A stretch of DNA of 32,000 nt from Methylophaga frappieri (GTDB taxonomy: Bacteria > Pseudomonadota > Gammaproteobacteria > Nitrosococcales > Methylophagaceae): assembly GCF_000260965.1 (NCBI RefSeq), contig NC_017856.1, forward strand, positions 240,001 through 272,000. The letters run 5' to 3'. The notes under the pieces are model-generated. The model searched no databases, was not told the DNA's origin, and saw only the letters and a program-made list of their open reading frames with translations. Of this stretch, positions 11,755 to 26,790 are shown one piece after another. How positions within the stretch are numbered: the first letter of the stretch is position 1; every line of letters begins with the position of its first letter. The translations under genes and the position numbers were made by a program.

Positions 11755-12426
11755 TTACGGTTTTATAATTCCAAGTGCTACAGCGATATTTGCCAGATCG
11801 GCCGTCGTATTTGCATTTAGTTTATTTTTGATAGTGGTGTTGTAATTGGCCACCGTTTTGTAACCAAGGTGTAATTCGGCAGCGACCTCATGCGCCGTCA
11901 AGCCTTTTGCTGTTCGACAAAAAACATCAAACTCTCGCGGCGAAAGTAATTCAACTACCTCACCATAATGCAAGGTTGCCGCGGGTTGTTTAAAATCATC
12001 AAGTCCGGGAAGTATTTCAGGGTCGATATAACGCTGACCTTGCATAACTTTTGATACTGCTTCCGCTAAAACTTCAGCGGCGCTATTTTTCGTCACATAT
12101 CCTTTTGCACCGGCTTGCATAGCACGTTCAACATAGACAGACTCGTCATGAATACTGTAAACGAGAATAATTGCCGCGGGATCTTGACGCTTTAATCGTC
12201 GAATCGTTTCCAAGCCGCCAATCCCTGGCATAGATAAGTCCATCACAACCACATCAGGGTGACTTCGTTCATACTCATGACAAACGAGCTCTCCCCGATC
12301 CACGTCGGTAATCTGACCGATAAAGGCTTGTGATGATAGCAACATACGGAAGCCCGCTCTAACGACGGCATGGTCATCTACCAATAAAACATCAATTTTC
12401 TTATCGTTCATCCTGCTGTTTCTCAT
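11755..12426 (-). CDS. NarL/FixJ(LuxR)-family response regulator
   Basis: REC domain (VLLVDDHAVVRAG..., VVVMDLSMPGIGG) plus a LuxR-type HTH (LSPREFDVFCRTAKGLTAHEVAAELHLGYKTVANYNTTIKNKL). An alternative start at 12411 (MNDKKID) is possible. Either start overlaps the kinase stop at 12401-12403. Confidence 0.85.
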   Translation of the reverse strand: MRNSRMNDKKIDVLLVDDHAVVRAGFRMLLSSQAFIGQITDVDRGELVCHEYERSHPDVVVMDLSMPGIGGLETIRRLKRQDPAAIILVYSIHDESVYVERAMQAGAKGYVTKNSAAEVLAEAVSKVMQGQRYIDPEILPGLDDFKQPAATLHYGEVVELLSPREFDVFCRTAKGLTAHEVAAELHLGYKTVANYNTTIKNKLNANTTADLANIAVALGIIKP

Positions 12427-13744
12427 CTATCGGCATCCACGCCTGAACACTTGCTCCCTGATTAGGGACAGATTCAAACCGGAAACGTCCCCCCATATTT
12501 TCAACGCGTTCACGCATAGCCAAGATACCAAAACCCGGTTGCTTTTCATCAATACTTTTGCCTTGGCCATCGTCTTTAATTCGCATTACGACTCGCGGGG
12601 TGCTTGTCTCACCTTCTTTAATAACTTGAATCCAGATATGCGTTGCATTTGCGTGACGTACCACATTGGTCAGCGACTCCTGCACAATACGGTACACATG
12701 AATTGCCAATTCATGTGGTATAGCATCAAGCCGATGGTCATACTGTAAATTAATTTTAAGTGCTGGATAACGGCGTCTAGATTCGTTCACCATATCAGAC
12801 AACGTTGCACCCAGCCCCAAATCGGTCAGACTGAGCGGATGCAATGTCCGCATCATTGATCTCACGACCCCTGATAAATGCGTACAAATTTCTATCATCG
12901 AGTCAGAAATTTGCACATGATTTGCGGTCTCTTTGCGATTGGTCACCGCCATCGCCTTAATTGCTGTTAACGACTGCCCCATTTCATCATGTAACTCCCG
13001 AGAAAGGTTACGACGCTCATTTTCTTGAATATGCATCGTATGTCTTGCTAGTGCTTGGTTACTATCTCTTGCCGCTTGCAATGCGTCAGTCAAATTGTTG
13101 ATTTCACTGGCAATAACATCAAACTCACTAATTTGAAAATTGGGCAGTTTTTTGCCATATTGGCCTGACTCTACCCGACGAAGCCCTATCACAATGCTAT
13201 GAACAGTCCGTAGCATTGAATTAAAAACCACATTAATCGCCAGAAAAATAACGCCCATCATCGCCACAACAGACCAAAAATAAGATTGAGACTCACCCCA
13301 CGCCTCTTCAATCTCATCAATTGGATCAGCGCGAATAATCATCTTTTTATTTCGCCCATCAGCAAGTTGAATATTGTATTCAGCTTGCGGATAATCATTA
13401 ATAACCAAGTTAACGAACCAGTCCGGTGGTATCTTTTGGCTATCACGCAATACGTCTTCTTGAAACCATTCAACCTCTTCGCCCATATCATTAACAATCG
13501 AAATATTGATATGGCGAATCTTTTGAATTGTACTTACTTGCCGAAGCCAATCGAACTCGGATAAAGACGACCGCGATAAATGACTGAAGCCCAAATCAAT
13601 CATTTGCAAAGCGAGATTAAATGAAGAGTCCACTTCACGTTCAACGGCTTTTCTGGCTTGCCAAACTGTCAGCAGACCACCGACAATAATAATCAATAAA
13701 ACCGTAATAATAATGCGGACATTAATTAGACCACGAAGACTCAT
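12401..13744 (-). CDS. NarX/UhpB-type (HisKA_3) sensor histidine kinase with periplasmic loop and HAMP domain
   Basis: Two TM segments (IIITVLLIIIVGGLLTVW and YFWSVVAMMGVIFLAINVVF) flank a loop of ~130 aa. H-box LSRELHDEMGQSL. ATPase G-boxes DDGQG...GFGILAMRERV. It starts 22 nt after the barrel gene stop. Confidence 0.85.
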   Translation of the reverse strand: MSLRGLINVRIIITVLLIIIVGGLLTVWQARKAVEREVDSSFNLALQMIDLGFSHLSRSSLSEFDWLRQVSTIQKIRHINISIVNDMGEEVEWFQEDVLRDSQKIPPDWFVNLVINDYPQAEYNIQLADGRNKKMIIRADPIDEIEEAWGESQSYFWSVVAMMGVIFLAINVVFNSMLRTVHSIVIGLRRVESGQYGKKLPNFQISEFDVIASEINNLTDALQAARDSNQALARHTMHIQENERRNLSRELHDEMGQSLTAIKAMAVTNRKETANHVQISDSMIEICTHLSGVVRSMMRTLHPLSLTDLGLGATLSDMVNESRRRYPALKINLQYDHRLDAIPHELAIHVYRIVQESLTNVVRHANATHIWIQVIKEGETSTPRVVMRIKDDGQGKSIDEKQPGFGILAMRERVENMGGRFRFESVPNQGASVQAWMPIDEKQQDER

Positions 13745-13766: not shown

Positions 13767-14897
13767 TTAAAACACATAGTTTAACCCGAGACTTACCCCA
13801 TAGCTGTCCCATTCGACTTCGTTAAATTTAGTCGTTAATTCCGTTCCATCGACCAAATAGGTCGTGTCTTTACCTCGACGATCCGCTAACCACTTTTGAA
13901 ACTGCAGATCCAAAGTCAACGCCAAGTCAGGCGTAAAATGCCACTGACTACGTAACTCGGTTACCCAGCCATAGCCATCGGCTTCGTGCTCAAAACTCTC
14001 TGGCTGGGCAAAATCGGAGCGCAAGTTCCATTCAGCCGTCGCATCATAATCAATATAGTGGTATTCAACATTGAGTCCTAAACTAAACTTACCCGTTTGA
14101 AAAAACACGCTTTCAAGCCCAACCCACGGCCCAAACCAGCTTGTGTCGTAACTGGATCTGAGTCCTGGGAATCGAATCGAAACGGGTTCAGAGTTTAGGA
14201 TGGTTTGGCGGCCATCAACTATTTTTAAATCTTGGGAGTGATAGGCGACACCCAACTTTGGCCTGAGCTCGAAACCTGCAGTACCCGCCTCATTAAATAA
14301 CCATTGATAACGGTAACCAAACCCCACTGAAAAATCCAACACGTTGCCTTCATCCGCACCATTATTTGAGCGCGAAAATTCTTCACGTCGATTATTTTCA
14401 AAATAATCTGAATCTTGATTTTCCCCATTTACGATTTCGCCCCAAACCGCATCACCAGTTACGAACCAGTTATTGCGCATCTGCAACGTCGCCCCTAAAT
14501 TCAACGTAGCAATTTCAATGTCTTTCCAGGTTAGCTCTGACAGTATATTTGGTCTCCCGCCTGGCCCAGCAATACTCCATACCAGATCATCTCGCCGATA
14601 CCCGGCCTTGAAATAAACATCCGCTTTGTCATAGGCAAAAATCGGCTTTTTCTCCGGCCGACGATCATACACATGGACTTTGAGCGTCTCCGGTTGTTTG
14701 GCTTGACCCACCGGTAAGTCTGGAATCACTTTTGCCGGAATTTGCGCATTGTGATCAGGATTTGCAATAGGTGCAGGTGACGTCGTCGACTCCGCTTCAA
14801 ATACATGCATCACTAAGCTGGGGGCAGCCTGAATAGTCGTTGAGGACAAAAACGTAACGCAAAACGATGTCACCCCTAAAAATAATCTAGCGCGCAT
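13767..14897 (-). CDS. outer-membrane beta-barrel protein, omptin-like by eye
   Basis: Signal peptide ...SSTTIQA/AP. Alternating beta-strand pattern with the C-terminal OMP signature GLNYVF. By-eye collinearity with OmpT: SELTWK vs SQLDWK, GDAVWGEIVNGENQDSDY vs AAGWTTLGSRGGNMVDQDW, and LRPKLGVAYHS vs YRLGLMAGYQES. The start overlaps the secretin stop by 11 nt. Confidence 0.6.
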   Translation of the reverse strand: MRARLFLGVTSFCVTFLSSTTIQAAPSLVMHVFEAESTTSPAPIANPDHNAQIPAKVIPDLPVGQAKQPETLKVHVYDRRPEKKPIFAYDKADVYFKAGYRRDDLVWSIAGPGGRPNILSELTWKDIEIATLNLGATLQMRNNWFVTGDAVWGEIVNGENQDSDYFENNRREEFSRSNNGADEGNVLDFSVGFGYRYQWLFNEAGTAGFELRPKLGVAYHSQDLKIVDGRQTILNSEPVSIRFPGLRSSYDTSWFGPWVGLESVFFQTGKFSLGLNVEYHYIDYDATAEWNLRSDFAQPESFEHEADGYGWVTELRSQWHFTPDLALTLDLQFQKWLADRRGKDTTYLVDGTELTTKFNEVEWDSYGVSLGLNYVF

Positions 14898-17220
14898 TGC
14901 CCATCACCTCTTCAAAGGGTAAGGCTGAAATAAGATACATAAAGCTGGTATCGCCCTGCTGTCCTCTTGCCGCTAACACCGTATTCTCAACGGAAGAGGC
15001 TAACCAGCGTCCATTAATATCTTGATAATTCACAGCCTGTTCAGTGCTCGTGCTATTGAGTATCTGTAAGCCGGTCACATACATTCCGCCACGATTCCAT
15101 GAACCTAACGGTTTCGCCACAACACGATCATCGGCAAAAATATCACGCCGCATTGCGCGATCCACAGGCACAGGTTGATAAAGCGGATCCGTCACGCGTT
15201 CAAAGTCATTCGTTCGCATCATCTCGGCAGCATACTGACTCATCTCCATATAAACCGATTGTCGACTTGCTTCCGTGCGTTGTGCAGGACTCACTTGTGA
15301 TTGAGGCGACGTTACCTCTTCATCTTTATCGATAAAGCGATTAGGGAACTCGGCTGGATCCGGATATCCCTGATTATGCGATTTGTAAAACAGATTTTCT
15401 CCATCACGACGAATCGACTCACTTTCACCTGGCGTATTCATAATACGCGGGGTAATCAATAACACCGTCTCGGTCTCTTGTTCACCATCAATTGTTGAGG
15501 TAAATATTCGGCCAACGAGAGGAATTTCACTCAGCAGCGGCACTTTTCGCTCATTACGATTTTCACTGGTTCGAATCAACCCACCCACCGCAACGGTCAA
15601 ATTATTTTTGGCCATAACCGTACCGGTCAAGCGCGCTGTATCAACTGTATCGACCTGAAGGTTCGTAATACCATTTACGGTATCTCCAACAGGTATCGTT
15701 CCGCCTCCCACGTTTACAGTAGAATTTTCCTGTTCAATATACAGCTCCACTGTACCGTCGTTATTTATTCGGGGACTGATACGTAGTGTAATACCGATAT
15801 CTTCACGGGTAATCTGAGCCTCAACAAAGGCTTGTTGCAACACAATACCGTTATCAATCACAGCAGGAAAAAACTCAAATCCTTCTGTAAGTAAAGTTTC
15901 TTCACCGATAAAGAGCTCGGCAGGACGATGATTGGATGCCACCACCATAGGATTAGAAAGCACTTTGATCCGGTTCTGCTCTTCGAGAAATTGAATATTG
16001 GCTCGTAATCGATTATTCAAAAACTCGTAAACAAAAGTCCCTGAATTTAATAATGCATTGTTTCCCAGCAATACCGGTTGCTGAGATTGATTGCTTCCAC
16101 TTGGCTGGAGGGCAAAGTTGAAAATTGAGTTGATATCCTCACCCAAGATGACGTTTAAGATACGCATTTCCAGCATCACCTGAGGCACTGGTATATCCAT
16201 TTTATCAATCATCTTCTGAATGCCAGACAATACCGACTTATCATCCGTCCGGACAATGATCATATTGTGTTCATTATTGACCGTGACATAAATCGGTTGA
16301 GATTGAACAGTGGTTTGCTGCAGGGTTTCCTGACTGACATTTCGGCTGCCAGTCAATTCAATCGCTTCGGCTATTTGCGAAATCTGATCAACACTCAATT
16401 CTTCAGCATCAAGCTGCGTGCCCGACTCAATAAAATTATTTCGGCCAAAACCACTACGGCTACTGCCAATACTGCCAAACCCACGACGTGATGATGTGCT
16501 ATTTCTGACCGAGCGGTTATTTCCTCGAACTGAACCAAATCCGCTGCTACTGTTTCCAAAGCCACTACTGTTTCCAAAGCCACTACTGTTACCAAAGCCA
16601 GTATTCCCAAAGTTATTAGAAGCCGGTGGTAAGCCCAGAGATAAGATTACTCTTGGGCCATAAATGTCTTCGATCGCCTGAGCAAGGATCTGCACATTCG
16701 CATTCAATAGCCGAAATATTTCTATATTTTCGCTTTCGCGGATAATCAGGTCTTTGCTGTATTCTTCGCGCGTCATTAACCTAAAAGTATTCGTGTCATC
16801 ATCATAGCGATACCATAAATCGCTGATTCGACTGATCGATTTCACGGCATCTAAGATCGAGGTATTTTTTAGATGGATGGTCACCTCACGGTTCGCCGCT
16901 TCACGCGTGGCAATAATATTGTGATCACTTAATTCCGATAACGCACGCACCACGTCGCTCATATTGGACCCGTTAAACTCAATCTCCTCAATCATCGTGG
17001 TGTTATCAACGTCCGGTCCTTCCTCCTGTACCGGAATCAATGTTGGCGCACGATTACCTGGCACGACAGGCTGTTGCGCGGATAGCGTCGTCGTATTTTG
17101 GGGATTAGCAATTGCCGGTCCTTGCTCACCAGACACAACGCCGCCTCCCCAAACTGGTAACACCACCATCCCGAATAAACTGGCATGGATCACACTGGAC
17201 AATAACTTCATATTCATCAT
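14887..17220 (-). CDS. secretin (GspD/PilQ/MshL superfamily) with FG/GS-rich linker and long C-terminal extension
   Basis: 777 aa with a signal peptide and N0/N1-like domains (IEFNGSNMSDVVRALSELSDHNIIA...). The secretin core signature is NNLTVAVGGLIRTSENRNERKVPLLSEIPLVGRIFTS...VLLITPRIM. ATGA overlap with the upstream gene at 17217-17220. Confidence 0.85.
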   Translation of the reverse strand: MMNMKLLSSVIHASLFGMVVLPVWGGGVVSGEQGPAIANPQNTTTLSAQQPVVPGNRAPTLIPVQEEGPDVDNTTMIEEIEFNGSNMSDVVRALSELSDHNIIATREAANREVTIHLKNTSILDAVKSISRISDLWYRYDDDTNTFRLMTREEYSKDLIIRESENIEIFRLLNANVQILAQAIEDIYGPRVILSLGLPPASNNFGNTGFGNSSGFGNSSGFGNSSSGFGSVRGNNRSVRNSTSSRRGFGSIGSSRSGFGRNNFIESGTQLDAEELSVDQISQIAEAIELTGSRNVSQETLQQTTVQSQPIYVTVNNEHNMIIVRTDDKSVLSGIQKMIDKMDIPVPQVMLEMRILNVILGEDINSIFNFALQPSGSNQSQQPVLLGNNALLNSGTFVYEFLNNRLRANIQFLEEQNRIKVLSNPMVVASNHRPAELFIGEETLLTEGFEFFPAVIDNGIVLQQAFVEAQITREDIGITLRISPRINNDGTVELYIEQENSTVNVGGGTIPVGDTVNGITNLQVDTVDTARLTGTVMAKNNLTVAVGGLIRTSENRNERKVPLLSEIPLVGRIFTSTIDGEQETETVLLITPRIMNTPGESESIRRDGENLFYKSHNQGYPDPAEFPNRFIDKDEEVTSPQSQVSPAQRTEASRQSVYMEMSQYAAEMMRTNDFERVTDPLYQPVPVDRAMRRDIFADDRVVAKPLGSWNRGGMYVTGLQILNSTSTEQAVNYQDINGRWLASSVENTVLAARGQQGDTSFMYLISALPFEEVMGNAR
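16534..16612 (-). repeat. in-frame 18-nt tandem repeat encoding (GFGNSS)n inside the secretin gene
   Basis: The plus strand shows CCAAAGCCACTACTGTTT / CCAAAGCCACTACTGTTA / CCAAAGCCAGTATTCCCA, preceded by the degenerate copy CCAAATCCGCTGCTACTGTTT. This translates on the minus strand to NTGFGNSSGFGNSSGFGNSSSGFG. Confidence 0.8.
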
Positions 17221-17660
17221 CTTAAAACGCGAATCCGGCCTAATGTACCGGTTTCAATGGTTATACTCAGACGGCTGATTTCCGAGATTCGAATTGCGCT
17301 GGCTGGTTGACGTGGGTCAATATTAATTTCGTCTCCTTCCCGCACCATGAAAACACCACTACCGGCGATATCCAATAAAGCCAGTTCTTCGCCAGTTTCC
17401 TTTTCCGTAATTAATCCACGCAAGCGCATTCGTGGTATTTGAAAATCAGGAATATCTCCGGGACGAAAACCAAAAGCATCACTGCCAATATTCGATAGGG
17501 TCCCGGCCTGTTCATACATCAACGCACTTGGCGTAAACGGATCACGAATCGTCACTTCCGATGATTCGCCAAGACTCACTGGCTCAAAAGCCATTGCTGA
17601 GAGTGGCATCCAAACGGAACAAAGCCCTATTAAAATCGGAATGTTAGGTTTGCTGTACAT
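17217..17660 (-). CDS. periplasmic PilP / GspC-HR / MshK-like secretin-coupling protein (putative)
   Basis: 147 aa with signal peptide ...PLSAMA/FEP. The C-terminal beta-rich segment LRGLITEKETGEELALLDIAGSGVFMVREGDEINID resembles PilP/GspC HR domains. It sits between the platform and secretin genes, abutting the platform stop (TAAATG) and overlapping the secretin start. Confidence 0.45.
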   Translation of the reverse strand: MYSKPNIPILIGLCSVWMPLSAMAFEPVSLGESSEVTIRDPFTPSALMYEQAGTLSNIGSDAFGFRPGDIPDFQIPRMRLRGLITEKETGEELALLDIAGSGVFMVREGDEINIDPRQPASAIRISEISRLSITIETGTLGRIRVLR

Positions 17661-18884
17661 TTATCTTCCTCCGCCAGCCAGAGCGAATAAAGCCTGAAAA
17701 AAGGCGTAATAGACAAAACCCACCATGCCGCCAATCAGTAATATCATTGCCGGCTCAATCATTGCTGAAAGGCGTTTTATCGCGATCTCCAACAGACTTT
17801 GATAATAAACACCCAGCTCCTGCAAAATCTGATCTAGTGAGCCTGTTCGCTCACCGATGGCAATCATTTGTGTCACAAGGGGAGGCATTTTTCGATGTTC
17901 TATACTTGAAGCCAGATCCCGACCGGCAAATACCCGATCCGATGCAGAGCGCATCGTATCGGCATATATTTTGTTAGCGATCAAGTCTGAGGTAATTTTC
18001 AACCCCTCAAAAATCGTCACACCACTGCGTAACAAAATGGACATCGCCCAATTCATCTGGGCCATGGAGCCATAAACAATCATCGGCCCAAATACCGGAA
18101 AACTCAGTAAAATCCGGTCTATCAGGCGTCTGCCTTTGTAAGTTTTGTAAATAATAAAAAGTAAAATTGTGGTGACAATCGCCGTGCCGATTATAAATAA
18201 TCCGTTTTCTCTCAAATAGGCAGCACCATCAATTAAACTTTGCGTCGACGCCGGTAAAGGCCGGTTTTGTCGTTCAAGAAACGTGGCAAATTTCGGAATT
18301 ATCGCGACCACCATAAAAGTCGCCACCCCGATGGCTGCAATCACAACGACAACCGGGTAAATCATGGCATTGATCATTTGTTTTCGAAGCTGGGATTTTT
18401 TTTCTAAATGAATCGCCAACCGCTCCATGATGACATCCAGCTCCCCGGTATTTTCACCTGCCACCACCAGATTGATAGCGATATCACTAAACACATCATT
18501 ATGTTTTTTTAGTGCAACCGATAATGATTTTCCGGCCTGAATATCACGATGCATCTTCCGAATAGCAAGATTAAGCCGCGGACTCGTAATTTGATTTGAT
18601 GCCAGCTCTAAGCATTCCGCCACAGCTAACCCCGCGCGGAGCATAAACGCCATCTGCCGATAAAAGAAAATCAGGGAATCATTAGAAACAGAGCGTTGTG
18701 TTGCATACCAGTCTGCAAAGGTATCTTGCCCTAAAAATCCACGACGTTTTTTCTCGTTAATTTTTAAAACGCGCAGCCCTTCGGTTCGCAGTGCTTGCGC
18801 AGCTGCATTCAAGTTATCCGCATGCAACTGCCCAGCACGTTCTGTACCTGTTCGGGTGAGTGCTTGATAAGCAAATACCGGCAT
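17661..18884 (-). CDS. type II secretion / type IV pilus inner-membrane platform protein (GspF/PilC/MshG family)
   Basis: 407 aa with a duplicated T2SSF-type architecture: two cytoplasmic helical domains, each followed by TM segments. The conserved GERTGSLDQIL (GExxGxL) motif is present. It follows the ATPase gene after a 1-nt gap. Confidence 0.9.
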   Translation of the reverse strand: MPVFAYQALTRTGTERAGQLHADNLNAAAQALRTEGLRVLKINEKKRRGFLGQDTFADWYATQRSVSNDSLIFFYRQMAFMLRAGLAVAECLELASNQITSPRLNLAIRKMHRDIQAGKSLSVALKKHNDVFSDIAINLVVAGENTGELDVIMERLAIHLEKKSQLRKQMINAMIYPVVVVIAAIGVATFMVVAIIPKFATFLERQNRPLPASTQSLIDGAAYLRENGLFIIGTAIVTTILLFIIYKTYKGRRLIDRILLSFPVFGPMIVYGSMAQMNWAMSILLRSGVTIFEGLKITSDLIANKIYADTMRSASDRVFAGRDLASSIEHRKMPPLVTQMIAIGERTGSLDQILQELGVYYQSLLEIAIKRLSAMIEPAMILLIGGMVGFVYYAFFQALFALAGGGR

Positions 18885-18885
18885 A

Positions 18886-20535
18886 TCAGGTCACCGTGGC
18901 CTTTTGTATCTGCTTGAACAAGGCCACATTTTTAACTTCATCTAATGTGGTTAAGCCCCTAACAACTTTTTCACAGCCATCTTGCCACATAAACTTCAAG
19001 CGTGAACCGGCACTGGCCTCCAGTGTCTCTTCATCTGCACCACGCGCAACTAAACGGGCTAATTTCTCATCAAACCAGAGTGTTTCAAATAAGCCCAACC
19101 GGCCTCGAAATCCTTGTCCCTGACACACCGCACACCCAACAGGCTCATATATTTCCACAGCCACTTCACGACCTAATAAGGCTAATTCTTCTTCGGTGGC
19201 TGCTCGGGGTTGCGCGCAATGACGGCAAAGTCGTCTGACAAGACGCTGTGCAATAACAGCGGTCATCGTTGAGCCAATCAAAAACGGTTCACAGCCAATA
19301 TCGACTAAGCGCGTCACCGCACTGACGGCATTGTTTGTATGCAATGTAGAAAAAACCATATGCCCCGTCATCGCCGCTTTAACCGCCACATCGGCGGTTT
19401 CTGCATCACGAATCTCCCCCACCATTAAGACATCGGGGTCATGTCGCAGTAACGAACGCAACGCGTCGGCAAAATTGATTTTAGGGCCAGTTTGAATTTG
19501 CGAAACCCCATCAATCACATATTCAATCGGGTTTTCAACGGTCATAATATTAATATCTGCCGCATTGATTTCCTGCAGCGCGGCAAACAAAGTAGTCGAT
19601 TTACCACTTCCCGTTGGCCCCGTCAGCAAAATCATGCCATATGGCTTTCTTATTGCCTCTTGAAACGCGGCCAAATCCGCTTCAAGAAAGCCTAGGTCGG
19701 TGAGCGTCAAATCACTACTTTCTTGTCCCAGTAGTCGCATGGTGATGCGTTCACCATGTCGAATAGGTGCGGTAGCGACCCGGATATTAAATTCCAAATC
19801 AACGGGGGGGCCAAGATAATAGGTAAACCCACCATCTTGCGGCATCCGTTGCTCCGCAATATCCAATCCAGCCAACACTTTGACACGCGAAATTAGCCCC
19901 GCAGCCATACTGATATCACTCTCCAGGGGATAATCCGTTAATTTTCCATCAACCCGAAACCGAACACGCAAACCGTCATCCTCGGCCATAAAATGCACAT
20001 CGGATGAACGATTAAGATAGGCATCACGCAGTATCCGATCCAATAGCTCAATCAAGTCGGTTTCGGTTGATTCCTGACTGCCCGATTGAGCCTGCACAAT
20101 GGCTGAATTGGCTAATTGGCGTTTGACCATTAATTGCAACTGAGCCGGATCTGCCATCACCACTGGCAAATCACGTCCCATTAATCGGCGAGCTGATTCC
20201 GTCCCATTTCGATCGTGCGGGTCTCCTGTGACCAATAAATCCTCACCATCCAAAATGATTGCTAACAACATTTTGCGGTGAACCAAACTGGCCGGCATTT
20301 TTTTGGTTAAAACCGTGTTGATTTGAGCATGCTGTAAATCGACAAATGGCAACCCTTGCTCTTGGGCAAGAGCACGATGCAGCGCGGAGAGTGGAATACG
20401 ATATTCCGCTAAAACCTTACCCAATATGGGCGTACGCTCACGACGGGACTTGATACGCAGCTCATCAATTTCCGGCTGGGCCAACAGGCCGGTATCGATT
20501 CCTGCTTTTATCAATTGGTCATCGGTTATCGCCAT
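18886..20535 (-). CDS. type IV filament assembly ATPase (GspE/PilB/MshE family)
   Basis: 549 aa with a T2SSE_N-like N-terminus (ILGKVLAEYRIPLSALHRALAQEQGLPFVDL). Walker A is GPTGSGKST, the Asp box/Walker B is DPDVLMVGEIRD, and the His box is TGHMVFSTLHTN. A tetracysteine zinc motif is present (CRHC...CAVC). A GAGAGTAGG Shine-Dalgarno sequence precedes the ATG. Confidence 0.9.
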   Translation of the reverse strand: MAITDDQLIKAGIDTGLLAQPEIDELRIKSRRERTPILGKVLAEYRIPLSALHRALAQEQGLPFVDLQHAQINTVLTKKMPASLVHRKMLLAIILDGEDLLVTGDPHDRNGTESARRLMGRDLPVVMADPAQLQLMVKRQLANSAIVQAQSGSQESTETDLIELLDRILRDAYLNRSSDVHFMAEDDGLRVRFRVDGKLTDYPLESDISMAAGLISRVKVLAGLDIAEQRMPQDGGFTYYLGPPVDLEFNIRVATAPIRHGERITMRLLGQESSDLTLTDLGFLEADLAAFQEAIRKPYGMILLTGPTGSGKSTTLFAALQEINAADINIMTVENPIEYVIDGVSQIQTGPKINFADALRSLLRHDPDVLMVGEIRDAETADVAVKAAMTGHMVFSTLHTNNAVSAVTRLVDIGCEPFLIGSTMTAVIAQRLVRRLCRHCAQPRAATEEELALLGREVAVEIYEPVGCAVCQGQGFRGRLGLFETLWFDEKLARLVARGADEETLEASAGSRLKFMWQDGCEKVVRGLTTLDEVKNVALFKQIQKATVT

Positions 20536-20552
20536 GCCTACTCTCGACTACC

Positions 20553-21215
20553 CTACAACGCTAAAACCAGATCGGTTTTTAATAATTGCGACATACCACG
20601 TAAAGGCGCCACATCCAGTTTTTGAATGTTCACCTGCACCACCGTGACCTGATAAGGCAACTCATCCAACCCATAAATAAATCGTCTCAGAGAGGGAAAA
20701 TCACCATCAATTTCTAATCGTTGCATGGGTCTGGCATACATGGATCCCGGTGACAGCCGTCTTATCCACCCTGCCTCTGGCGGCACAATAATTTCTTCTG
20801 AGCTGGTATTATTGCGTCGATTATTACCCAGTCGAACCGGATCCGGACGCAAATTTTGATTCACCCGAATCCGAATTCCACTATCTCTGGCTAACTCGGA
20901 AATGCGTACCCGTAACTCCTGCGAATCAATCGGTGCCAAGAGCGTTTCCACCTGCTGGGCATTTTCACGCACCGCATCAAGGGCTTTTTCCAAATCATCC
21001 AACTCGGCATTGATATCGTCGATTTTCTCGCGTGGCTCTTCCGGTATTTCCATTGTGGAGATTCGATTCATGGTAGCGTTCTTTTGACGCTCTAAGGCCG
21101 CGATTTGTGTTGAACGTGGGTCATAGCGCAAATAACCATACCCGCCTAACAACACCACAACCAAAATGGCACCCGCCAGCCATTTTTCCCGTTGATTTAA
21201 TTGTTTTAATTTCAT
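20553..21215 (-). CDS. bitopic PilO / GspM / MshJ-like alignment-complex protein (putative)
   Basis: 220 aa. It has a short cytoplasmic N-terminus, one TM segment (WLAGAILVVVLLGGYGYL), a coiled-coil region, and a C-terminal alpha/beta region. ATGA overlap with the upstream gene at 21212-21215. Confidence 0.5.
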   Translation of the reverse strand: MKLKQLNQREKWLAGAILVVVLLGGYGYLRYDPRSTQIAALERQKNATMNRISTMEIPEEPREKIDDINAELDDLEKALDAVRENAQQVETLLAPIDSQELRVRISELARDSGIRIRVNQNLRPDPVRLGNNRRNNTSSEEIIVPPEAGWIRRLSPGSMYARPMQRLEIDGDFPSLRRFIYGLDELPYQVTVVQVNIQKLDVAPLRGMSQLLKTDLVLAL

Positions 21216-22981
21216 GGCGCTTCCTCTTCAATCGGCACCACATGCAAGATACTCATCGATACGGAATAACCACTCATGTTCATCGGACCGATTTTTTCAA
21301 ACACTTGAATATCACGAACCTCCATATCCCACGCTGCCACTGCTAACTTCATATTTTGCACAAATTCCTGACCGGCACTTTCAGTCAAAGCCCAAGCATC
21401 AATATTGAAGTTATCTTTAACAATATGGCCCGGCCGCACTGCGGTCGGAGCAGTATCTGCCTGCACACCAACCCGCCGCCCCATCTCATCTATCCGGTTG
21501 ATGATGATTTGTTCGTTAACGGTATTCTGGATAATGCCCAGCACTGCCTGCACCATCAGTGACCGTTCTGGCATTTCTTGCCCAAAGAAATCCAGCCGTG
21601 ACTCCATCCGGCGCTGACTCTCCTGTTGGGCCTCTAATTCTGCTTGACGCTTATCAATCTCTTCGCGCTGTGCATTAATTCTGGCAACCGCATCATCAAG
21701 CACCTTGGCGCGGGCGTCGATTTCTGCTTTTTCTTTACTGACGTTGTTGTGTTGAATAAACATCACCAGTTCGGCAACCAAAATCAACGCAATAAGGCCA
21801 CCCACCAGTAATGCCGCCTGGTTTTCCTGACGTTTTAATGGCGGCGGCAAGGGGCCCCCCTGACGGATTAAACTAATGCGTTTACCGCCTTTTAAATTGA
21901 AAATATGCCGTGCAGCAGCCATCACGCCCGGCGATAAATACTCCGGATTTTGACTTGGCAAAAGTGACACTTCATGGCCAATCGCTTCTTTAAACTGGGC
22001 TTGCAAATCTGGCAGATTATCGGTCGGACAACTCAGCAAGATTGCTGGATGCTGAGTCAGATTTTCACTGTGATAGGCTTCCAGACAAGCATTGAGCATT
22101 GACTCGGTATGATTCAGGAGATGCCGAACCGAGACCACATTTTGACGATGAAGACGCACTGCCGTCGTGGTGAGTGATGAGGTTTCTAAAATCAACGCAG
22201 ACTTATCGGTTTGCTCCAATAAAGCCAGACTATTGCCAGTCAGCGGCATCAAACCAAGCAACGTTAAATCATGATCATCACACAGCGTTGTCCATTTTTG
22301 GATGGATGAGCTATACGCGGCGCTGACTAACCAGTTCCATACACCGGGCGCATCATCAACCTCACCCTGAGCTGACCAGCCACATTGCACTTCATCATCT
22401 TCATCCCGGAGCCAATCCTGTACCACAAACAAAGATTGAACCTGTTCACGACTGACATAGCCCAGATCCATGGCCAATTCGCCAAACCGTTTGGTTGGGG
22501 TGCGATCAACCGAACGTGGCGCGCCAGTATTTTTGGCTTGTCGTTTTTGAATATCATTGATTTCGACTATTTGCTCATGACTTAACATGCCATGTAATTC
22601 GAGCAAAAAGCCAAGTGTCCATTGAGCTTGATGTTGCATCAAAAGCGGTTCTACTTCCCAGCGAACCAATTCGTGCATTTGCTCAACCGGTTTCGGTTTT
22701 TTGGCCGACACCGGTAATTCAATAATCGCATTCATGGCAGATGGCGTCAGCACCACAACATGCTTGCCTTTCCAGCCCTGCTGGCGCACAGAAAGTAACA
22801 CATGCTCAAATGCCTCAGCCGGATCCAGATGATCGGCTTCCGCCTCTGCTGAGATATACAGGCTTTTCCCTTTTCGACCAAACACGGTACCCCGCAGGAG
22901 CCTCGCATCCCACTCGCAGATAAGAATTTGATGACTGTGAATTTTTGCAAAATGAGCTTTTATATCGTCAACTAAACTCAT
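21212..22981 (-). CDS. PilM+PilN fusion / GspL / MshI-like bitopic protein (putative)
   Basis: 589 aa. A cytoplasmic region of ~385 aa carries PilM/GspL-like strings (VLTPSAMNAIIELPVSAKKPKPVEQMHELVRWEVEPLL). It is followed by one TM segment (ALLVGGLIALILVAELVMFI), a coiled coil, and a periplasmic domain of ~120 aa. Confidence 0.55.
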   Translation of the reverse strand: MSLVDDIKAHFAKIHSHQILICEWDARLLRGTVFGRKGKSLYISAEAEADHLDPAEAFEHVLLSVRQQGWKGKHVVVLTPSAMNAIIELPVSAKKPKPVEQMHELVRWEVEPLLMQHQAQWTLGFLLELHGMLSHEQIVEINDIQKRQAKNTGAPRSVDRTPTKRFGELAMDLGYVSREQVQSLFVVQDWLRDEDDEVQCGWSAQGEVDDAPGVWNWLVSAAYSSSIQKWTTLCDDHDLTLLGLMPLTGNSLALLEQTDKSALILETSSLTTTAVRLHRQNVVSVRHLLNHTESMLNACLEAYHSENLTQHPAILLSCPTDNLPDLQAQFKEAIGHEVSLLPSQNPEYLSPGVMAAARHIFNLKGGKRISLIRQGGPLPPPLKRQENQAALLVGGLIALILVAELVMFIQHNNVSKEKAEIDARAKVLDDAVARINAQREEIDKRQAELEAQQESQRRMESRLDFFGQEMPERSLMVQAVLGIIQNTVNEQIIINRIDEMGRRVGVQADTAPTAVRPGHIVKDNFNIDAWALTESAGQEFVQNMKLAVAAWDMEVRDIQVFEKIGPMNMSGYSVSMSILHVVPIEEEAP

Positions 22982-23172
22982 GCGTTTATCCTGAACTGCA
23001 GATAGGGGGTGGTCAGTAACATTGCAAGCAAGCCATTGGCATAGCTTACTGCTGCGTATGGGGAATAATCTTGCTCGTCAATTTTGGGTAGCAAAATTGC
23101 TGTATCAGTAATGATCGGAACACTCCATTGCACCCTACTTATGCTTAATGAAGAAGCGATATTTTTAATCAT
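22978..23172 (-). CDS. small hypothetical protein (64 aa) embedded in the filament operon
   Basis: With the ATG at 23172 (MIKNIASS...), the ORF makes ATGA overlaps at both ends: 23169-23172 with the 529-aa prepilin stop and 22978-22981 with the next start. It has a C-terminal hydrophobic stretch GLLAMLLTTPYL. I recognised no family. Confidence 0.4.
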   Translation of the reverse strand: MIKNIASSLSISRVQWSVPIITDTAILLPKIDEQDYSPYAAVSYANGLLAMLLTTPYLQFRINA

Positions 23173-24758
23173 AAGCCTCCCCAAAAAAGTGGTTCAGGCT
23201 TAAGCGGTATGCTCGCTCTTGGCACGGCAAAAACTTTTTTTGTAGCAGTTGAAAAGTTACCTTGTTCACAACTAGCGTCGGCATAAACGTACCCGTTACT
23301 ATCACAAACCACTGTCAGGGTATGGATGCCGGCAGGTAGTCTTAAAGAGGCTGGAATAGTTAAATCATTACCGTTTTTAAGTGTACCGGGTGGCACGGCA
23401 AAAGTGTCTCCTGACAATGTCATCACGATGTTATTTTCCAGCGTGAATGTTTCTGAGACCGTTATCTCTGCCCCACCAAGAGTAACTTTACTATCTATGA
23501 CTTCACTACTACTTCCAGCCGGTAAGTCCACTGTAGTATCACCCGGTAATGTCAGTGTCGTCCCGGTAATATTGCTGCCAGGCGGTACATAAATAACCCG
23601 CTTTGACAGGTTACTGGCAATAAAACCTACAACCGCGGTAGAGGCTGTCAATTCCGCGCCTGATGTTGTTGTGACAGTAGAATGATTACCATCTGGTAAT
23701 GGCGATGTTCCATCTGAAGTTTGTAAGTTTGTCATTTGAATTGTGCAGCCACCGGCACAATACGGTGCTATTTGATATTCATCAATATAATCTTCTGGCT
23801 GCGGAGTTACTTCGTCGGTATAGCTAATTACTGTGCCGGGTTGAAGTGTGATTTCATTACCTGCTTTATTCACTGGTATTGAAAATTGAATAAATTCTAA
23901 ATCGGCAACTGGCACAACAATATTCCCAAACTCATCGGTCTCCATGTCAAGGGTTGGGAAAACTGCCGATAGTGATAAATCTAAATCGCGCTCAGTTACT
24001 GTGGCCGGCCATTGAGGTGGTGCTCCATTTTCTGGAAAATTTAATTTCAGCCTGAAATTCGGAGGGGGATCCTGAAGTGGAAGAAAGTTTATAAAGGCAG
24101 CAACGTTTATCCAGTCATTACCAACCGTGACGGTAAAATCATTTAGTTCCAACAATGTGACACTGATATCGTCACTGTTGCTTGATAAATCCAATCCATT
24201 ACTGGTGATATCAACTTGACCACTAAACGCATCGACCTGATAAATCCAGCCATAGTTCAGATGATCCTCGACTGGGTCAGCATCAATATTGTTATAGCCA
24301 TCACGAAAGCTTTTGATACCACTACCTTCCTGATTCGCCCTTAAATAAGGGCCACGCCAGCCAGCGCCAGAGCCTGTTGCCGGATCCAGTTGCCAAATGC
24401 GAATATCATTAGACGGATCATTATCACAGGACGATTCGAAAATACCATTTTCCAGCGAGACAGCGGCACCTAATTCAACTAATTCTCTCAGGCACAACGG
24501 TAAACGGCCCACATCTGAAACAAAACCACTTAATTCAGGCGATCCATTCACTGTTCGACTAGTATCCCCTGCAATTGCTTGTTTAATCAGGTCCAACCGT
24601 TGTTGGGTTTCATCAAATTGCGCCTGTTGTTCTATATTATCGGTAAATAACAAACCGGCAGAAGCCAGCAAACCAACCAAAAATAAAACCAGCACCATCT
24701 CCAGCAGGGTAAAACCGCGAGATTGGTGAAGAGATGACATTGAGGCCCGTATCGTCAT
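23169..24758 (-). CDS. large prepilin-type (class III signal peptide) protein, candidate minor/tip pilin
   Basis: MTIRASMSSLHQSRG/FTLLEMVLVLFLVGLLASAGLLF matches the G/FTLxE prepilin cleavage-methylation motif with Glu5. The mature part is ~514 aa, rich in Thr/Ser/Val/Asn beta-type sequence, with several Cys pairs. Confidence 0.75.
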   Translation of the reverse strand: MTIRASMSSLHQSRGFTLLEMVLVLFLVGLLASAGLLFTDNIEQQAQFDETQQRLDLIKQAIAGDTSRTVNGSPELSGFVSDVGRLPLCLRELVELGAAVSLENGIFESSCDNDPSNDIRIWQLDPATGSGAGWRGPYLRANQEGSGIKSFRDGYNNIDADPVEDHLNYGWIYQVDAFSGQVDITSNGLDLSSNSDDISVTLLELNDFTVTVGNDWINVAAFINFLPLQDPPPNFRLKLNFPENGAPPQWPATVTERDLDLSLSAVFPTLDMETDEFGNIVVPVADLEFIQFSIPVNKAGNEITLQPGTVISYTDEVTPQPEDYIDEYQIAPYCAGGCTIQMTNLQTSDGTSPLPDGNHSTVTTTSGAELTASTAVVGFIASNLSKRVIYVPPGSNITGTTLTLPGDTTVDLPAGSSSEVIDSKVTLGGAEITVSETFTLENNIVMTLSGDTFAVPPGTLKNGNDLTIPASLRLPAGIHTLTVVCDSNGYVYADASCEQGNFSTATKKVFAVPRASIPLKPEPLFWGGL

Positions 24759-24765
24759 CGCCCAA

Positions 24766-25596
24766 TTACCGCAACAGACACAGAATCAGATCATCGCTTC
24801 CGGCAGGCGGGACACACATATCATCAGTAGCCAGATCATATTCATCACTGGCACTTTCCAACACGCCATTCTCCCCCGTGCTGACTAAGCGGACAATATT
24901 GCCCGGAATAATATAATCGGCCGGTAATGCGCCGTCTGTGACCGACTGACAGTTATAGAGATCTGTTGTCCCATCTATCGCCAGTTGACCGGTTACGGTC
25001 GCATGTTCTTGACAATACACGGTTTGGTTGTAGTCCAACTCAGGGTCAAGCAACCGATAACGGTTACCCCAGCCATCCGTCAACGCCTCTTTTGATATAT
25101 AAGGGCCATTCCAGCCAATCTGCCGCGTGCGGTCCCAAAACAACACGCTATGTGCCGCTGCATCATAAGGAAACACGTTTAACATCAAAAGCGCATGACT
25201 GGCTTTGTCTGCCCCACCTGAGTTAGCCTGGGATTGACACCAGGTGTGCCAGTCATCTCTATCGGTATCAGATGGAAAAAGATAGCTACCGCTAAATTGG
25301 TTGCCGTAAGCATTTTCAAAATCAAATGGATTATATTCACCGTCGCGGTAAACACGACAAGGCAATTCGCGGTTATCACGGCGGAATTGCAGCAAGGCTT
25401 TTTGCAGCTCGACCATTTCCAGTCGCGTCACGTTGAATCGAGCCTGATCTTCATTGCCCTCAAAGGCATTCAGCGCCGCAACACTAATCACCGCCAGCAA
25501 CGTAATCACCAACAAAATTTCGATTAGGGTAAAACCCTGCTGTGACTGTCTGCCAGCCGAAAAACTGAGGAGTCGGTTAAACAATAAACGCCGCAT
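24766..25596 (-). CDS. prepilin-type protein (GspG/pseudopilin-like N-terminal region), 276 aa
   Basis: MRRLLFNRLLSFSAGRQSQQG/FTLIEILLVITLLAVISVAALNAF. This is followed by the pseudopilin-like helix LEMVELQKALLQFRRDNRELP. The leader is 21 aa. Confidence 0.8.
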   Translation of the reverse strand: MRRLLFNRLLSFSAGRQSQQGFTLIEILLVITLLAVISVAALNAFEGNEDQARFNVTRLEMVELQKALLQFRRDNRELPCRVYRDGEYNPFDFENAYGNQFSGSYLFPSDTDRDDWHTWCQSQANSGGADKASHALLMLNVFPYDAAAHSVLFWDRTRQIGWNGPYISKEALTDGWGNRYRLLDPELDYNQTVYCQEHATVTGQLAIDGTTDLYNCQSVTDGALPADYIIPGNIVRLVSTGENGVLESASDEYDLATDDMCVPPAGSDDLILCLLR

Positions 25597-25719
25597 TTAC
25601 TTGTTCCCGATTGTGGTCATTTTGTCAGTGCGCTAAGCACACCCCCTGACGCTGCATAACATCCTGTTGATACAAAACGTTCTGCAAATATGCAAGATAT
25701 TGGCGCAACGTTCTGGTTG

Positions 25720-25750
25720 ATAAAGAAAGGGCGGACCAGGCCCGCCCTTT
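25720..25750 (-). terminator. Rho-independent terminator immediately after the 337-aa prepilin gene
   Basis: The minus strand reads AAAGGGCGG-GCCTGGT-CCGCCCTTT followed by CTTTAT. It lies 27 nt after the TAA at 25777-25779. Confidence 0.7.
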
Positions 25751-25776
25751 CATATTTCTCAACTTAAGCGATGAGA

Positions 25777-26790
25777 TTAATCATCATCACCTGCTGAAGA
25801 TTGGTTGGCTTCAGAAACCAACTGGTCGATGTTTTTACCATCGGTAGAAACAATCGTGATCAAACGCAGTTGATCATTCCATTCCCATTCATTATCTACG
25901 TCGTCATATTGACCGGCGTGGAACAGACCGATATAACGCGAATAGTGAATTTCTGGGTTAATCGCGGTATCACCGTCACCAGTTGTCGCGATGTAAGATG
26001 GTGATTGGGCAATCGCCACATTACTAAAGGCGGTAGAGGCCGCAGCATCACCACCAAAGCCCAGCGCGATCAGCGCATGACATTCGTCACCTTCCAGCGC
26101 ATCACCATAAGCATTTTGCAGTTCGTTATTAGAGATTGAAACAGTTGGGTCAAAAGCAGCAGCTGGATAACCACCGGCTGCACCGAAAGTAGTACATTGC
26201 GGGCTAGGAACTACCGCAAGGCTGACCGGAAAATCACCATCTTCGATTTCTACTTCTGCTGAAAGGCCCGCACTTTCGTTATGCATACGGTTTGGTGCGC
26301 CGGTTGGAGAATCATCAACTTCGGCAGCAGCTAAGACTTCTTGCAGCTCTTCAATACCTGACTCTTCAAACATTTCAACCAAAACAGCATCAAGACCAGC
26401 TGAACCAGCGACATCCCATTCGCCGAGGAAACCTTTCATGCCAGAAGCAGCAAAGGTCAGTTCATCGCCAGCCGCATCCATCAGGGTATCCCATTGATTT
26501 GGATAGACATTTTCTACCGCACGGTAGGTCCGAATTGCACGGTCAAGTGTCCCGATTGTATTCGCAGCTTGGGCTGCTTCCGCAGATTCACCAACATTTT
26601 CGTAGGCAACCAGCGCACCTGTTGCCAAAATAGCGATCAGGGTGATAACAACTAATAGCTCAAGTAAAGTAAAACCTTTTTCTTTACCTTGCAGTTTTTG
26701 CGCTTTGGCACGCAGTTTTGCATCTTTGATGACTGACAAATCCGCTTTACGGAATTTGGCAATCGCCGATTTCATTTGATTGATATTCAT
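25777..26790 (-). CDS. very large, highly acidic prepilin-type protein with a 39-aa basic leader (candidate major filament subunit)
   Basis: The leader is MNINQMKSAIAKFRKADLSVIKDAKLRAKAQKLQGKEKG, followed by /FTLLELLVVITLIAILATGALVAYEN. The mature part is 298 aa, with only about 8 Lys/Arg against several dozen Asp/Glu by my count. It has one Cys pair (SPQC...DEC) and its own terminator downstream. Confidence 0.8.
   Translation of the reverse strand: MNINQMKSAIAKFRKADLSVIKDAKLRAKAQKLQGKEKGFTLLELLVVITLIAILATGALVAYENVGESAEAAQAANTIGTLDRAIRTYRAVENVYPNQWDTLMDAAGDELTFAASGMKGFLGEWDVAGSAGLDAVLVEMFEESGIEELQEVLAAAEVDDSPTGAPNRMHNESAGLSAEVEIEDGDFPVSLAVVPSPQCTTFGAAGGYPAAAFDPTVSISNNELQNAYGDALEGDECHALIALGFGGDAAASTAFSNVAIAQSPSYIATTGDGDTAINPEIHYSRYIGLFHAGQYDDVDNEWEWNDQLRLITIVSTDGKNIDQLVSEANQSSAGDDD

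Follow-up and report, generated by a model that had tools for sequence, protein, structure and literature searches.

Why should an operon for a secretion or pilus machine encode an integral outer-membrane (OM) barrel directly behind its secretin? The question is raised by a locus of the gammaproteobacterium Methylophaga frappieri, which was analysed within a window of 32,000 nucleotides (nt; contig NC_017856.1, positions 240,001 to 272,000 of the forward strand; coordinates below are counted from the first letter of this window). Here, the gene for a 376-amino-acid (aa) barrel protein (13767..14897, minus strand) follows that of a 777-aa secretin (14887..17220, minus strand; Pfam Secretin E 2e-32 plus DUF3438). 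The open reading frame (ORF), a Pfam profile, an AlphaFold2 (AF2) model and Foldseek searches identify the former as an OM protein of the Pom family with an omptin fold. The targeting of secretins to the OM and their retention there are only partly understood, and, to our knowledge, all known dedicated secretin helpers are lipoproteins or periplasmic proteins. We lean towards a reading in which the barrel is a dedicated OM subunit and anchor of the secretin, attached through short motifs, in a non-canonical machine resembling a type II secretion system (T2SS) or type IV pilus (T4P). This reading builds on the established family and fold of the barrel, its conserved linkage to secretins, a clade-specific motif, a co-occurring secretin domain and the alternation of lipoprotein and barrel behind related secretins. 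A barrel as an accessory anchor of a secretin would be new, and would be built of known parts, namely a barrel of Pom family and omptin fold and a domain-peptide pair of the kind used by type IV secretion systems (T4SS). The literature searched yielded no description of a barrel partner of a secretin, of a DUF3438 secretin domain, or of the motif.

The two reading frames are tightly joined. At the junction (14887..14910, minus strand), the secretin stop codon TAG occupies 14889-14887 and the barrel ATG 14897-14895, giving an overlap of 11 nt, and a GAGG Shine-Dalgarno sequence lies at 14907-14910, 9 nt 5' of the ATG; relatives have similarly tight junctions. An earlier interpretation of the window made from its letters (the sequence-only reading) had placed the barrel start 11 nt before the secretin stop, which the junction bears out, and had taken this to mean that both proteins are made stoichiometrically. 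Only part of that argument holds, as the overlap implies translational coupling and is no proof of a 1:1 stoichiometry. We take the 376-aa start to be the correct one, because it yields a signal peptide (cut after TIQA24) and because homologues align over this start, signal peptide included. The signal peptide (residues 1-24, MRARLFLGVTSFCVTFLSSTTIQA, followed by AP; 14826..14897, minus strand) has a cleavage site of the signal peptidase I (SPase-I) type, TIQA/AP, and no lipobox Cys. The database gene call, P0001, is 347 aa long; its start at M30 would leave the protein without a signal peptide.

A secretin gene lies immediately upstream, in the same orientation, in 22 of the 80 genome loci with the greatest similarity to the window protein; these 22 also have GspE- and GspF-like genes wherever their contigs extend far enough. 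The linked taxa comprise Methylophaga, Colwellia, Methylobacter and other Methylococcaceae, Methylocaldum, Chromatiales and Methyloversatilis, and thus at least five proteobacterial lineages; in the closest relatives (L002-L013 and L025) the whole gene order of the window is present. The distance between secretin stop and barrel start lies between -29 and +34 nt in 18 of the 21 tabulated linked loci, and several linked loci have overlaps of 1, 4, 11 or 14 nt. In a neighbour-joining tree of the barrel region, 23 linked proteins fall within one clade of 25, the two exceptions being L017, whose contig ends 150 nt upstream of the gene, and L067, an unlinked paralogue. The linkage to secretins in other genomes, on which the sequence-only reading had depended, is therefore conserved, within a single clade. 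The other 58 loci, from Desulfobacterota, Nitrospirota, Planctomycetota, Omnitrophota and other groups, lack a nearby secretin. The genes that recur beside them are of housekeeping type, for a PlsC-type acyltransferase, RNase J, FtsK and CysS, and no alternative partner system emerged among these neighbours.

The linked clade has a feature of its own between signal peptide and barrel. This periplasmic N-terminal extension (residues 25-90; 14628..14825, minus strand) occurs in secretin-linked homologues only, where it covers 60-100 aa past the signal peptide and holds one to three copies of a motif of the form [LM]x[MV]H[VI][FY]. The window protein has two copies, both short and strand-like, LVMHVF (residues 28-33; 14799..14816, minus strand) and LKVHVY (residues 72-77; 14667..14684, minus strand). 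Further examples in linked barrels are LQMHVF and MKMHVF, and Colwellia has three copies. A strict pattern, [LMIV]x[MVLI]H[VIL][FY], is found in 19 of 23 linked N-termini versus 0 of 58 unlinked ones, with 29 copies counted versus <0.1 expected by chance. The extension is predicted to be disordered when alone; its predicted local distance difference test (pLDDT) values are mostly ~48-64, and 78 for residues 81-90. A tether that acquires its fold when bound would be expected to give such low values in a monomer model.

One Chromatiales metagenome-assembled genome contains both kinds of protein. Its locus L021 is secretin-linked and has degenerate motifs, and its locus L067 (6156-7310) is unlinked and has no motif. 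The pair should be useful for dating the gain or loss of the tether.

The secretin domain and its two kinds of proposed partner

The proposed docking site for the motifs lies at the C-terminus of the secretin. Residues ~638-777 (14890..15309, minus strand) form a domain that resembles DUF3438/TIGR03749 in Pfam and NCBIfam profile searches, and a domain homologous to residues 600-777 of the window secretin is present in 22 of 22 linked secretins. An exhaustive search of representatives found this domain in 277 of them only, at the C-terminus either of secretins of ~660-920 aa or of proteins of ~250-370 aa from integrative and conjugative elements (ICEs). Canonical secretins have a short S-domain in their C-terminal region, and the window secretin as a whole scores below cut-off on every named NCBIfam secretin model. 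A word-index search with the C-terminal domain returned nothing, and profile searches with it against PDB sequences returned either secretin-core matches or nothing.

The AF2 model of the domain (mean pLDDT 88) consists of a long helix, four strands and a C-terminal helix. Its best structural matches in the PDB are outer-ring chains of ~216 residues from the F-plasmid T4SS, 7SPB chain C1 (E 2e-5) and 7OKO chain 3 (E 2e-4). In this system, the TraK C-terminal domain, made of four strands and a helix, holds strands of the lipoprotein TraV in a clamp (PMC8770708).

A second unusual part of the secretin is a Gly/Ser/Asn/Phe-rich repeat (GFGNSSGFGNSSGFGNSSSGFG...RRGFGS...SGFGRNNF) that interrupts Secretin_N at residues ~200-270 (~16411-16623, minus strand). 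It gives a weak match to nucleoporin phenylalanine-glycine (FG) repeats, and is an unusual disordered insert for the periplasmic domain of a secretin.

To look at the partner from the side of the secretin, eight secretins were sampled via their DUF3438 domain and not via the barrel. Two of these (L085, L089) are followed by a Pom barrel, with a 4-nt overlap. Three others (L082, L086, L087), which form a second class of DUF3438-bearing secretins of ~705 aa, are followed by a lipoprotein of 84-92 aa, likewise with a 4-nt overlap (L082 6118-6396; L086 5096-5353; L087 3940-4194). The L082 lipoprotein has the motif itself (VLKMHVY), and those of L086 and L087 have a degenerate form without His (IEVFVF and LTMFVV). 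In L083, a downstream ORF cut by the contig end has a lipobox together with LPMHIF and LRMFLF; the downstream fragment of L090 reads ENLHVF, and the downstream DNA of L088 is uninformative. We read the conserved pairing as that of a DUF3438 domain with a motif peptide, the anchor of which is either a lipid or a Pom barrel. The sequence-only reading had proposed that the barrel could act as a pilotin or anchor surrogate, and this idea gains independent support from the small lipoproteins encoded behind related secretins, whose motif is identical or similar to that of the barrel extension.

Beyond the lipoprotein genes lie a DHOR di-haem oxidoreductase gene (L082, L087) and MoxR-type AAA genes, as well as DUF58 and transglutaminase genes in L082.

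The domain also has a motif-bearing neighbour in an ICE. The genes of ICE locus L091 (764-3211) are ordered TIGR03749, TIGR03752, TIGR03751, and the TIGR03751 lipoprotein, encoded two genes after TIGR03749, contains LVMFIY. The closeness of this peptide to the LVMHVF of the window, in a single ICE example, hints that the motif-domain pair originated in a T4SS of the mating-pair formation G (MPF-G) type. A third ICE locus, L092, is cut at the contig end.

The proposed arrangement can be compared with two groups of known systems. It resembles the VirB7-VirB9, TraV-TraK and ICE TIGR03749/TIGR03751 pairs in that the secretin domain matches TIGR03749/DUF3438 and has its nearest fold in F-plasmid chains that we read as TraK. 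Unlike in these pairs, the domain is fused to a secretin of the T2SS/T4P type, with no T4SS ring, and the partner peptide is carried by a barrel. The pilotins (GspS/AspS, PilF/PilW/Tgl, TadD and those of type III secretion systems) are, like the barrel, OM proteins encoded with the secretin; the barrel is proposed to bind the secretin's C-terminal region and to aid its targeting or stability, and in the sister systems described above a genuine small lipoprotein bears an identical or related motif. However, pilotins are small lipoproteins, whereas the window protein is an integral barrel with a mature length of 352 aa, an SPase-I signal and no lipobox, and the C-terminal region of the window secretin is a 140-aa DUF3438 domain and not a short S-domain.

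Fold and catalytic-site residues of the barrel

The sequence-only reading had called the barrel omptin-like, which proved right for its fold and not for its formal family. The protein matches the Pfam family Pom (PF17251; PomS/PomT) over residues 96-376 with E 2.9e-110 and a score of 368.5 bits (cut-off 22.4) over profile positions 2-285 of 285, and all 64 aligned homologues match it as well. Omptin (PF01278), in contrast, gives no Pfam match to the window protein at E<=1 and is absent from the 25 families matched at E<=10 by most of the 64 homologues. No NCBIfam model exists for the barrel protein, and PDB sequence searches with the protein and with its family profile returned nothing relevant. 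NCBI labels several of the homologues P0006, P0013, P0021, P0053 and P0090 as 'TonB-dependent receptor'; no TonB-dependent receptor family is among the Pfam matches listed. These names, together with the window gene call that lacks the signal peptide, are database labels corrected by the present analysis.

An AF2 model built on the 64-sequence alignment (mean pLDDT 85) has ten long strands at residues 91-375, as assigned by DSSP. The resulting barrel (residues 91-376; 13770..14627, minus strand), for which pLDDT is mostly >90, is elongated and superposable on OmpT and Pla, with a template modelling (TM) score of ~0.8 to omptins, normalised to the omptin chain. In a Foldseek search of the PDB, ranks 1-11 are all omptins (Pla, OmpT, pOmpT), with E-values of 1e-13 to 1e-9 and target-normalised TM-scores of 0.74-0.83, and the next matches are 'porin I' of the Legionella Dot/Icm system and OpcA, at TM ~0.6. 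At the level of the modelled fold, the similarity to omptins exceeds chance (Foldseek E 1e-13).

The profiles of the two families are much harder to connect. Profile-profile comparison by hhalign of the Pom alignment with single OmpT and with a 33-sequence omptin alignment was not significant (probability 1% in local mode), and usable residue correspondences came only from the hhalign global mode and from the hidden Markov model (HMM) alignment of a divergent homologue. This homologue, the barrel encoded after the related secretin of L085, bridges the families, as it matches both Pom (1.3e-43) and Pfam Omptin (32.1 bits, E 8e-08, gathering score 22.6), the latter over the whole profile. With the model and this bridging sequence, the omptin-likeness is real and the Pom family a distant omptin relative of the same fold. 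The likeness is not a new idea for the family, because Reddy and Saier had already remarked on limited similarity between PomS/T and omptins in 2016 (PMC4827864). The little-studied Pom family is now tied to the omptins through both fold and a bridging sequence.

Residue by residue, the likeness to omptins (OmpT, Pla, PgtE) goes beyond the tall ten-stranded barrel that makes them the best structural match. Both share S-x-L-x-W where strand 2 begins and G-x-x-x-D-x-D-[WY] at the strand 3 top, with a spacing of 42 versus 43 residues, and a G-Y motif in strand 5 and P-[WY]-x-G-L in strand 6 align. In the window protein, SELTWK lies at 120-125, GENQDSDY at 158-165, LGVAYHS at 215-221 and YDATAEW at 284-290. 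The first three had been matched by eye to SQLDWK, GNMVDQDW and LMAGYQE, all of which are present in E. coli OmpT, and the omptin HMM reproduces these correspondences on the L085 barrel (LSELDW with vsqLdW, DSDW with DtDW, IGYAWS with maGyqes). S120, E121, L122 and W124 are invariant in the 64-sequence Pom alignment.

The first catalytic Asp pair is retained, as had been suspected from its DSD. D162-S163-D164 (14406..14414, minus strand), at the top of strand 3, aligns with the omptin D-x-D in both the hhalign global alignment and the HMM alignment and is the counterpart of OmpT Asp83/Asp85; each Asp is present in 63 of 64 homologues. The presence of D-S-D in the 80 loci is not independent evidence, as these loci were fished with an NQDSDY pattern. 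The second catalytic pair is missing from the top of strand 7. The sequence-only reading could not align the Asp-x-His dyad, and rightly so, since the position of OmpT Asp210-His212 is R293-S294-D295 in the sole HMM alignment that spans it, that of homologue P0013. The only invariant His is H280 (14058..14060, minus strand; 64/64 in the alignment, 81/81 in the loci), which lies in the middle of strand 7 and is not the counterpart of OmpT His212. In the HMM alignments it falls near omptin FKYS, ~10 residues ahead of the dyad. E278 is conserved in 56 of 64 sequences of the Pom alignment, and E278-x-H280 was considered as an equivalent of Asp210-x-His212; it was rejected because H280 is a mid-strand residue, ~9 residues below the strand top by DSSP and ~10 before the dyad by HMM. 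Another His, H304 near the top of strand 8, is conserved in 47 of 64.

The conserved polar residues S120, E121, N160-Y165, E173, R176, S177, H280, N291 and R293 cluster near the extracellular tops of the strands. It is probable that the Pom family has a conserved activity or binding site of some kind that faces the surface. Because the Asp-His dyad is not kept, a protease of the canonical omptin kind is unlikely, and so is the protease option of the sequence-only reading as far as omptin-type activity is concerned. Further differences from omptins are the extra periplasmic N-terminal extension and the position of the gene inside a secretion or pilus operon.

Anchor, protease, porin or lipid enzyme

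In the reading that we favour, the barrel would be co-produced with the secretin from the same mRNA by translational coupling. An even-stranded OM barrel has both termini in the periplasm, and the C-terminus of a secretin lies at the pore's periphery, beneath the outer membrane. There, LVMHVF and LKVHVY could join the VirB9/TraK-like C-terminal domain of the secretin as additional strands, a docking that would resemble the binding of the lipoproteins VirB7 and TraV to VirB9 and TraK in T4SS. The barrel would take the place of the lipid as a pilotin-like, membrane-integral anchor, and may retain a second activity of its own through the conserved polar residues near the extracellular strand tops. 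A more far-reaching version, which we consider rather doubtful, is that the secretin has captured the principle of outer-ring anchoring from conjugative T4SS. A VirB9/TraK-like domain on each protomer would then grip a VirB7/TraV-like strand peptide that has moved from a lipoprotein to an omptin-fold barrel, and the pore would sit inside a stoichiometric ring of 12-15 barrels, which might keep a catalytic or binding activity at the surface that acts on the emerging filament or cargo.

[quoted passage not shown] The porin concerned, Porin I (Lpg2961; PDB 9NH1), is also the next-best structural match of our barrel outside the omptins. In contrast to the window barrel, which is encoded in the operon and has its own tether, Lpg2961 is a general major OM protein encoded elsewhere, and contacts Dis1 helices. 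No sequence relation between Lpg2961 and the window protein was detected in the PDB search with the family profile.

Several observations weigh against the anchor. The 22 of 80 loci with a linked secretin are biased towards the window's own clade and are not a family-wide frequency. The secretin domain matches the F-plasmid chains moderately in structure (E 2e-5, TM 0.34-0.43), the profile search against PDB sequences gave no sequence link between the domain and TraK, and it is by their length that the matched chains are presumably TraK (VirB9-like). The contact between motif and domain is one that we infer from co-occurrence. L082, L086 and L087 show no GspE or GspF in the flanking DNA examined, two of their motifs are degenerate and lack the His, and these lipoprotein-type loci may serve another machine. 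A second ICE locus, L093, has no lipoprotein after its DUF3438 gene, and just one ICE lipoprotein was examined. Finally, the conserved polar residues of the barrel are identical in linked and unlinked clades; therefore, the barrel seems to have an ancestral function that the anchor model does not explain.

An active omptin-like surface protease, cleaving or releasing filament subunits or secreted substrates as they leave the secretin, would fit the omptin fold, the nearly invariant Asp-x-Asp matching OmpT Asp83/Asp85, the many polar residues that are conserved close to the extracellular tops of the strands and the one homologue that exceeds the Omptin gathering score. The Asp210-His212 dyad is essential in omptins. 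With R293-S-D295 in its position in the HMM alignment and the sole invariant His, H280, ~10 residues lower on strand 7, we consider such a protease unlikely. The same conserved residues are moreover present in the 58 unlinked homologues with housekeeping contexts, and are thus not specific to a filament, and the characterised members PomS and PomT behave as porins. The latter point leads to an alternative that we hold to be as improbable as the protease, namely an ordinary small porin or channel that shares the operon and has no physical tie to the secretin. PomS and PomT of Protochlamydia amoebophila (TCDB 1.B.72) are related to the window protein by its full-length family match of 368 bits; PomS makes anion-selective pores in bilayers and is an abundant general porin of this chlamydial symbiont, for which no link to a secretin has been reported (PMC3561449). 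The majority of the family are likewise stand-alone genes. However, adjacency and tight junctions have been retained across Methylophaga, Colwellia, Methylococcales, Chromatiales and Methyloversatilis. The motif-bearing extension was gained by the linked clade alone, which differs from PomS and PomT in this extension as well as in its obligate adjacency to a secretin, and the motif recurs on lipoproteins after related secretins.

A very unlikely role is that of an OM lipid or lipopolysaccharide (LPS) enzyme in the manner of PagP, PagL or LpxR, recruited to remodel the membrane round the secretin for its insertion or gating. Polar residues in the outer half of the barrel are strongly conserved in all clades, omptins bind LPS, and a PlsC-type acyltransferase is the nearest divergent neighbour in 12 unlinked loci. 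Yet no search gave any similarity to PagP, PagL or LpxR, and the acyltransferase neighbourhood is confined to related taxa, lies beside RNase J and FtsK, and may be plain synteny. None of these three rivals, be it protease, unrelated porin or lipid enzyme, accounts for the co-occurrence of motif and domain or for the swap of anchors. With the dedicated anchor, the locus would offer an integral barrel, conserved and encoded in the operon, as partner of the secretin, a natural swap between lipid and barrel on one motif and a secretin domain apparently borrowed from the T4SS core. If true, it provides a directly testable model of anchor-mediated secretin assembly and a case in which type IV filament machines and type IV secretion machines have exchanged modules.

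The surrounding operon

The barrel gene is the last structural gene of a minus-strand operon. The rest of this operon (17217..26790, minus strand; assigned from ORFs and Pfam/NCBIfam profiles) encodes a 147-aa periplasmic protein, a GspF/PilC-like protein, a GspE/PilB-like ATPase, a 220-aa GspM-like protein, a 589-aa protein unnamed by profiles and three large prepilin-like proteins. The secretin, the ATPase and the platform protein all fall below the equivalog cut-offs that would mark a canonical T2SS or type IVa pilus, and no named model matched the 589-, 220- and 147-aa proteins above its cut-off. The operon showed no prepilin peptidase gene, and the pilin-like proteins, at 276-529 aa, are unusually large. 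The complete core set of either canonical system, GspC-M or PilMNOPQ with PilA and a prepilin peptidase, is not present as named equivalogs. By these profiles the machine is a non-canonical one of T2SS/T4P-like type.

On the downstream side, a histidine kinase gene begins 22 nt past the barrel stop and is followed by a gene for a LuxR-type response regulator (the pair at 11755-13744, minus strand). The kinase combines HisKA_3 with a periplasmic domain that weakly resembles LapD/MoxY. No terminator-like hairpin was seen in the 22-nt spacer, and the pair is therefore probably co-transcribed with the barrel. It follows the barrel solely in the closest Methylophaga loci (L002-L004).

The GspE/PilB-like ATPase (18886-20535, minus strand) has an N-terminal MshEN domain, the domain with which MshE binds cyclic di-GMP, and therefore the machine may be under cyclic di-GMP control. 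The first prepilin-like protein (25777-26790, minus strand; 337 aa) has an unusually long, lysine-rich leader of ~38 residues before GFTLLE; the other two are 276 and 529 aa long. Just upstream of this first pilin-like gene lies the gene for a 597-aa protein with Wzy_C, Wzy_C_2 and PglL_A matches (27489-29282, minus strand), of the type of O-antigen or protein O-glycosylation ligases, which suggests that the filament subunits are glycosylated.

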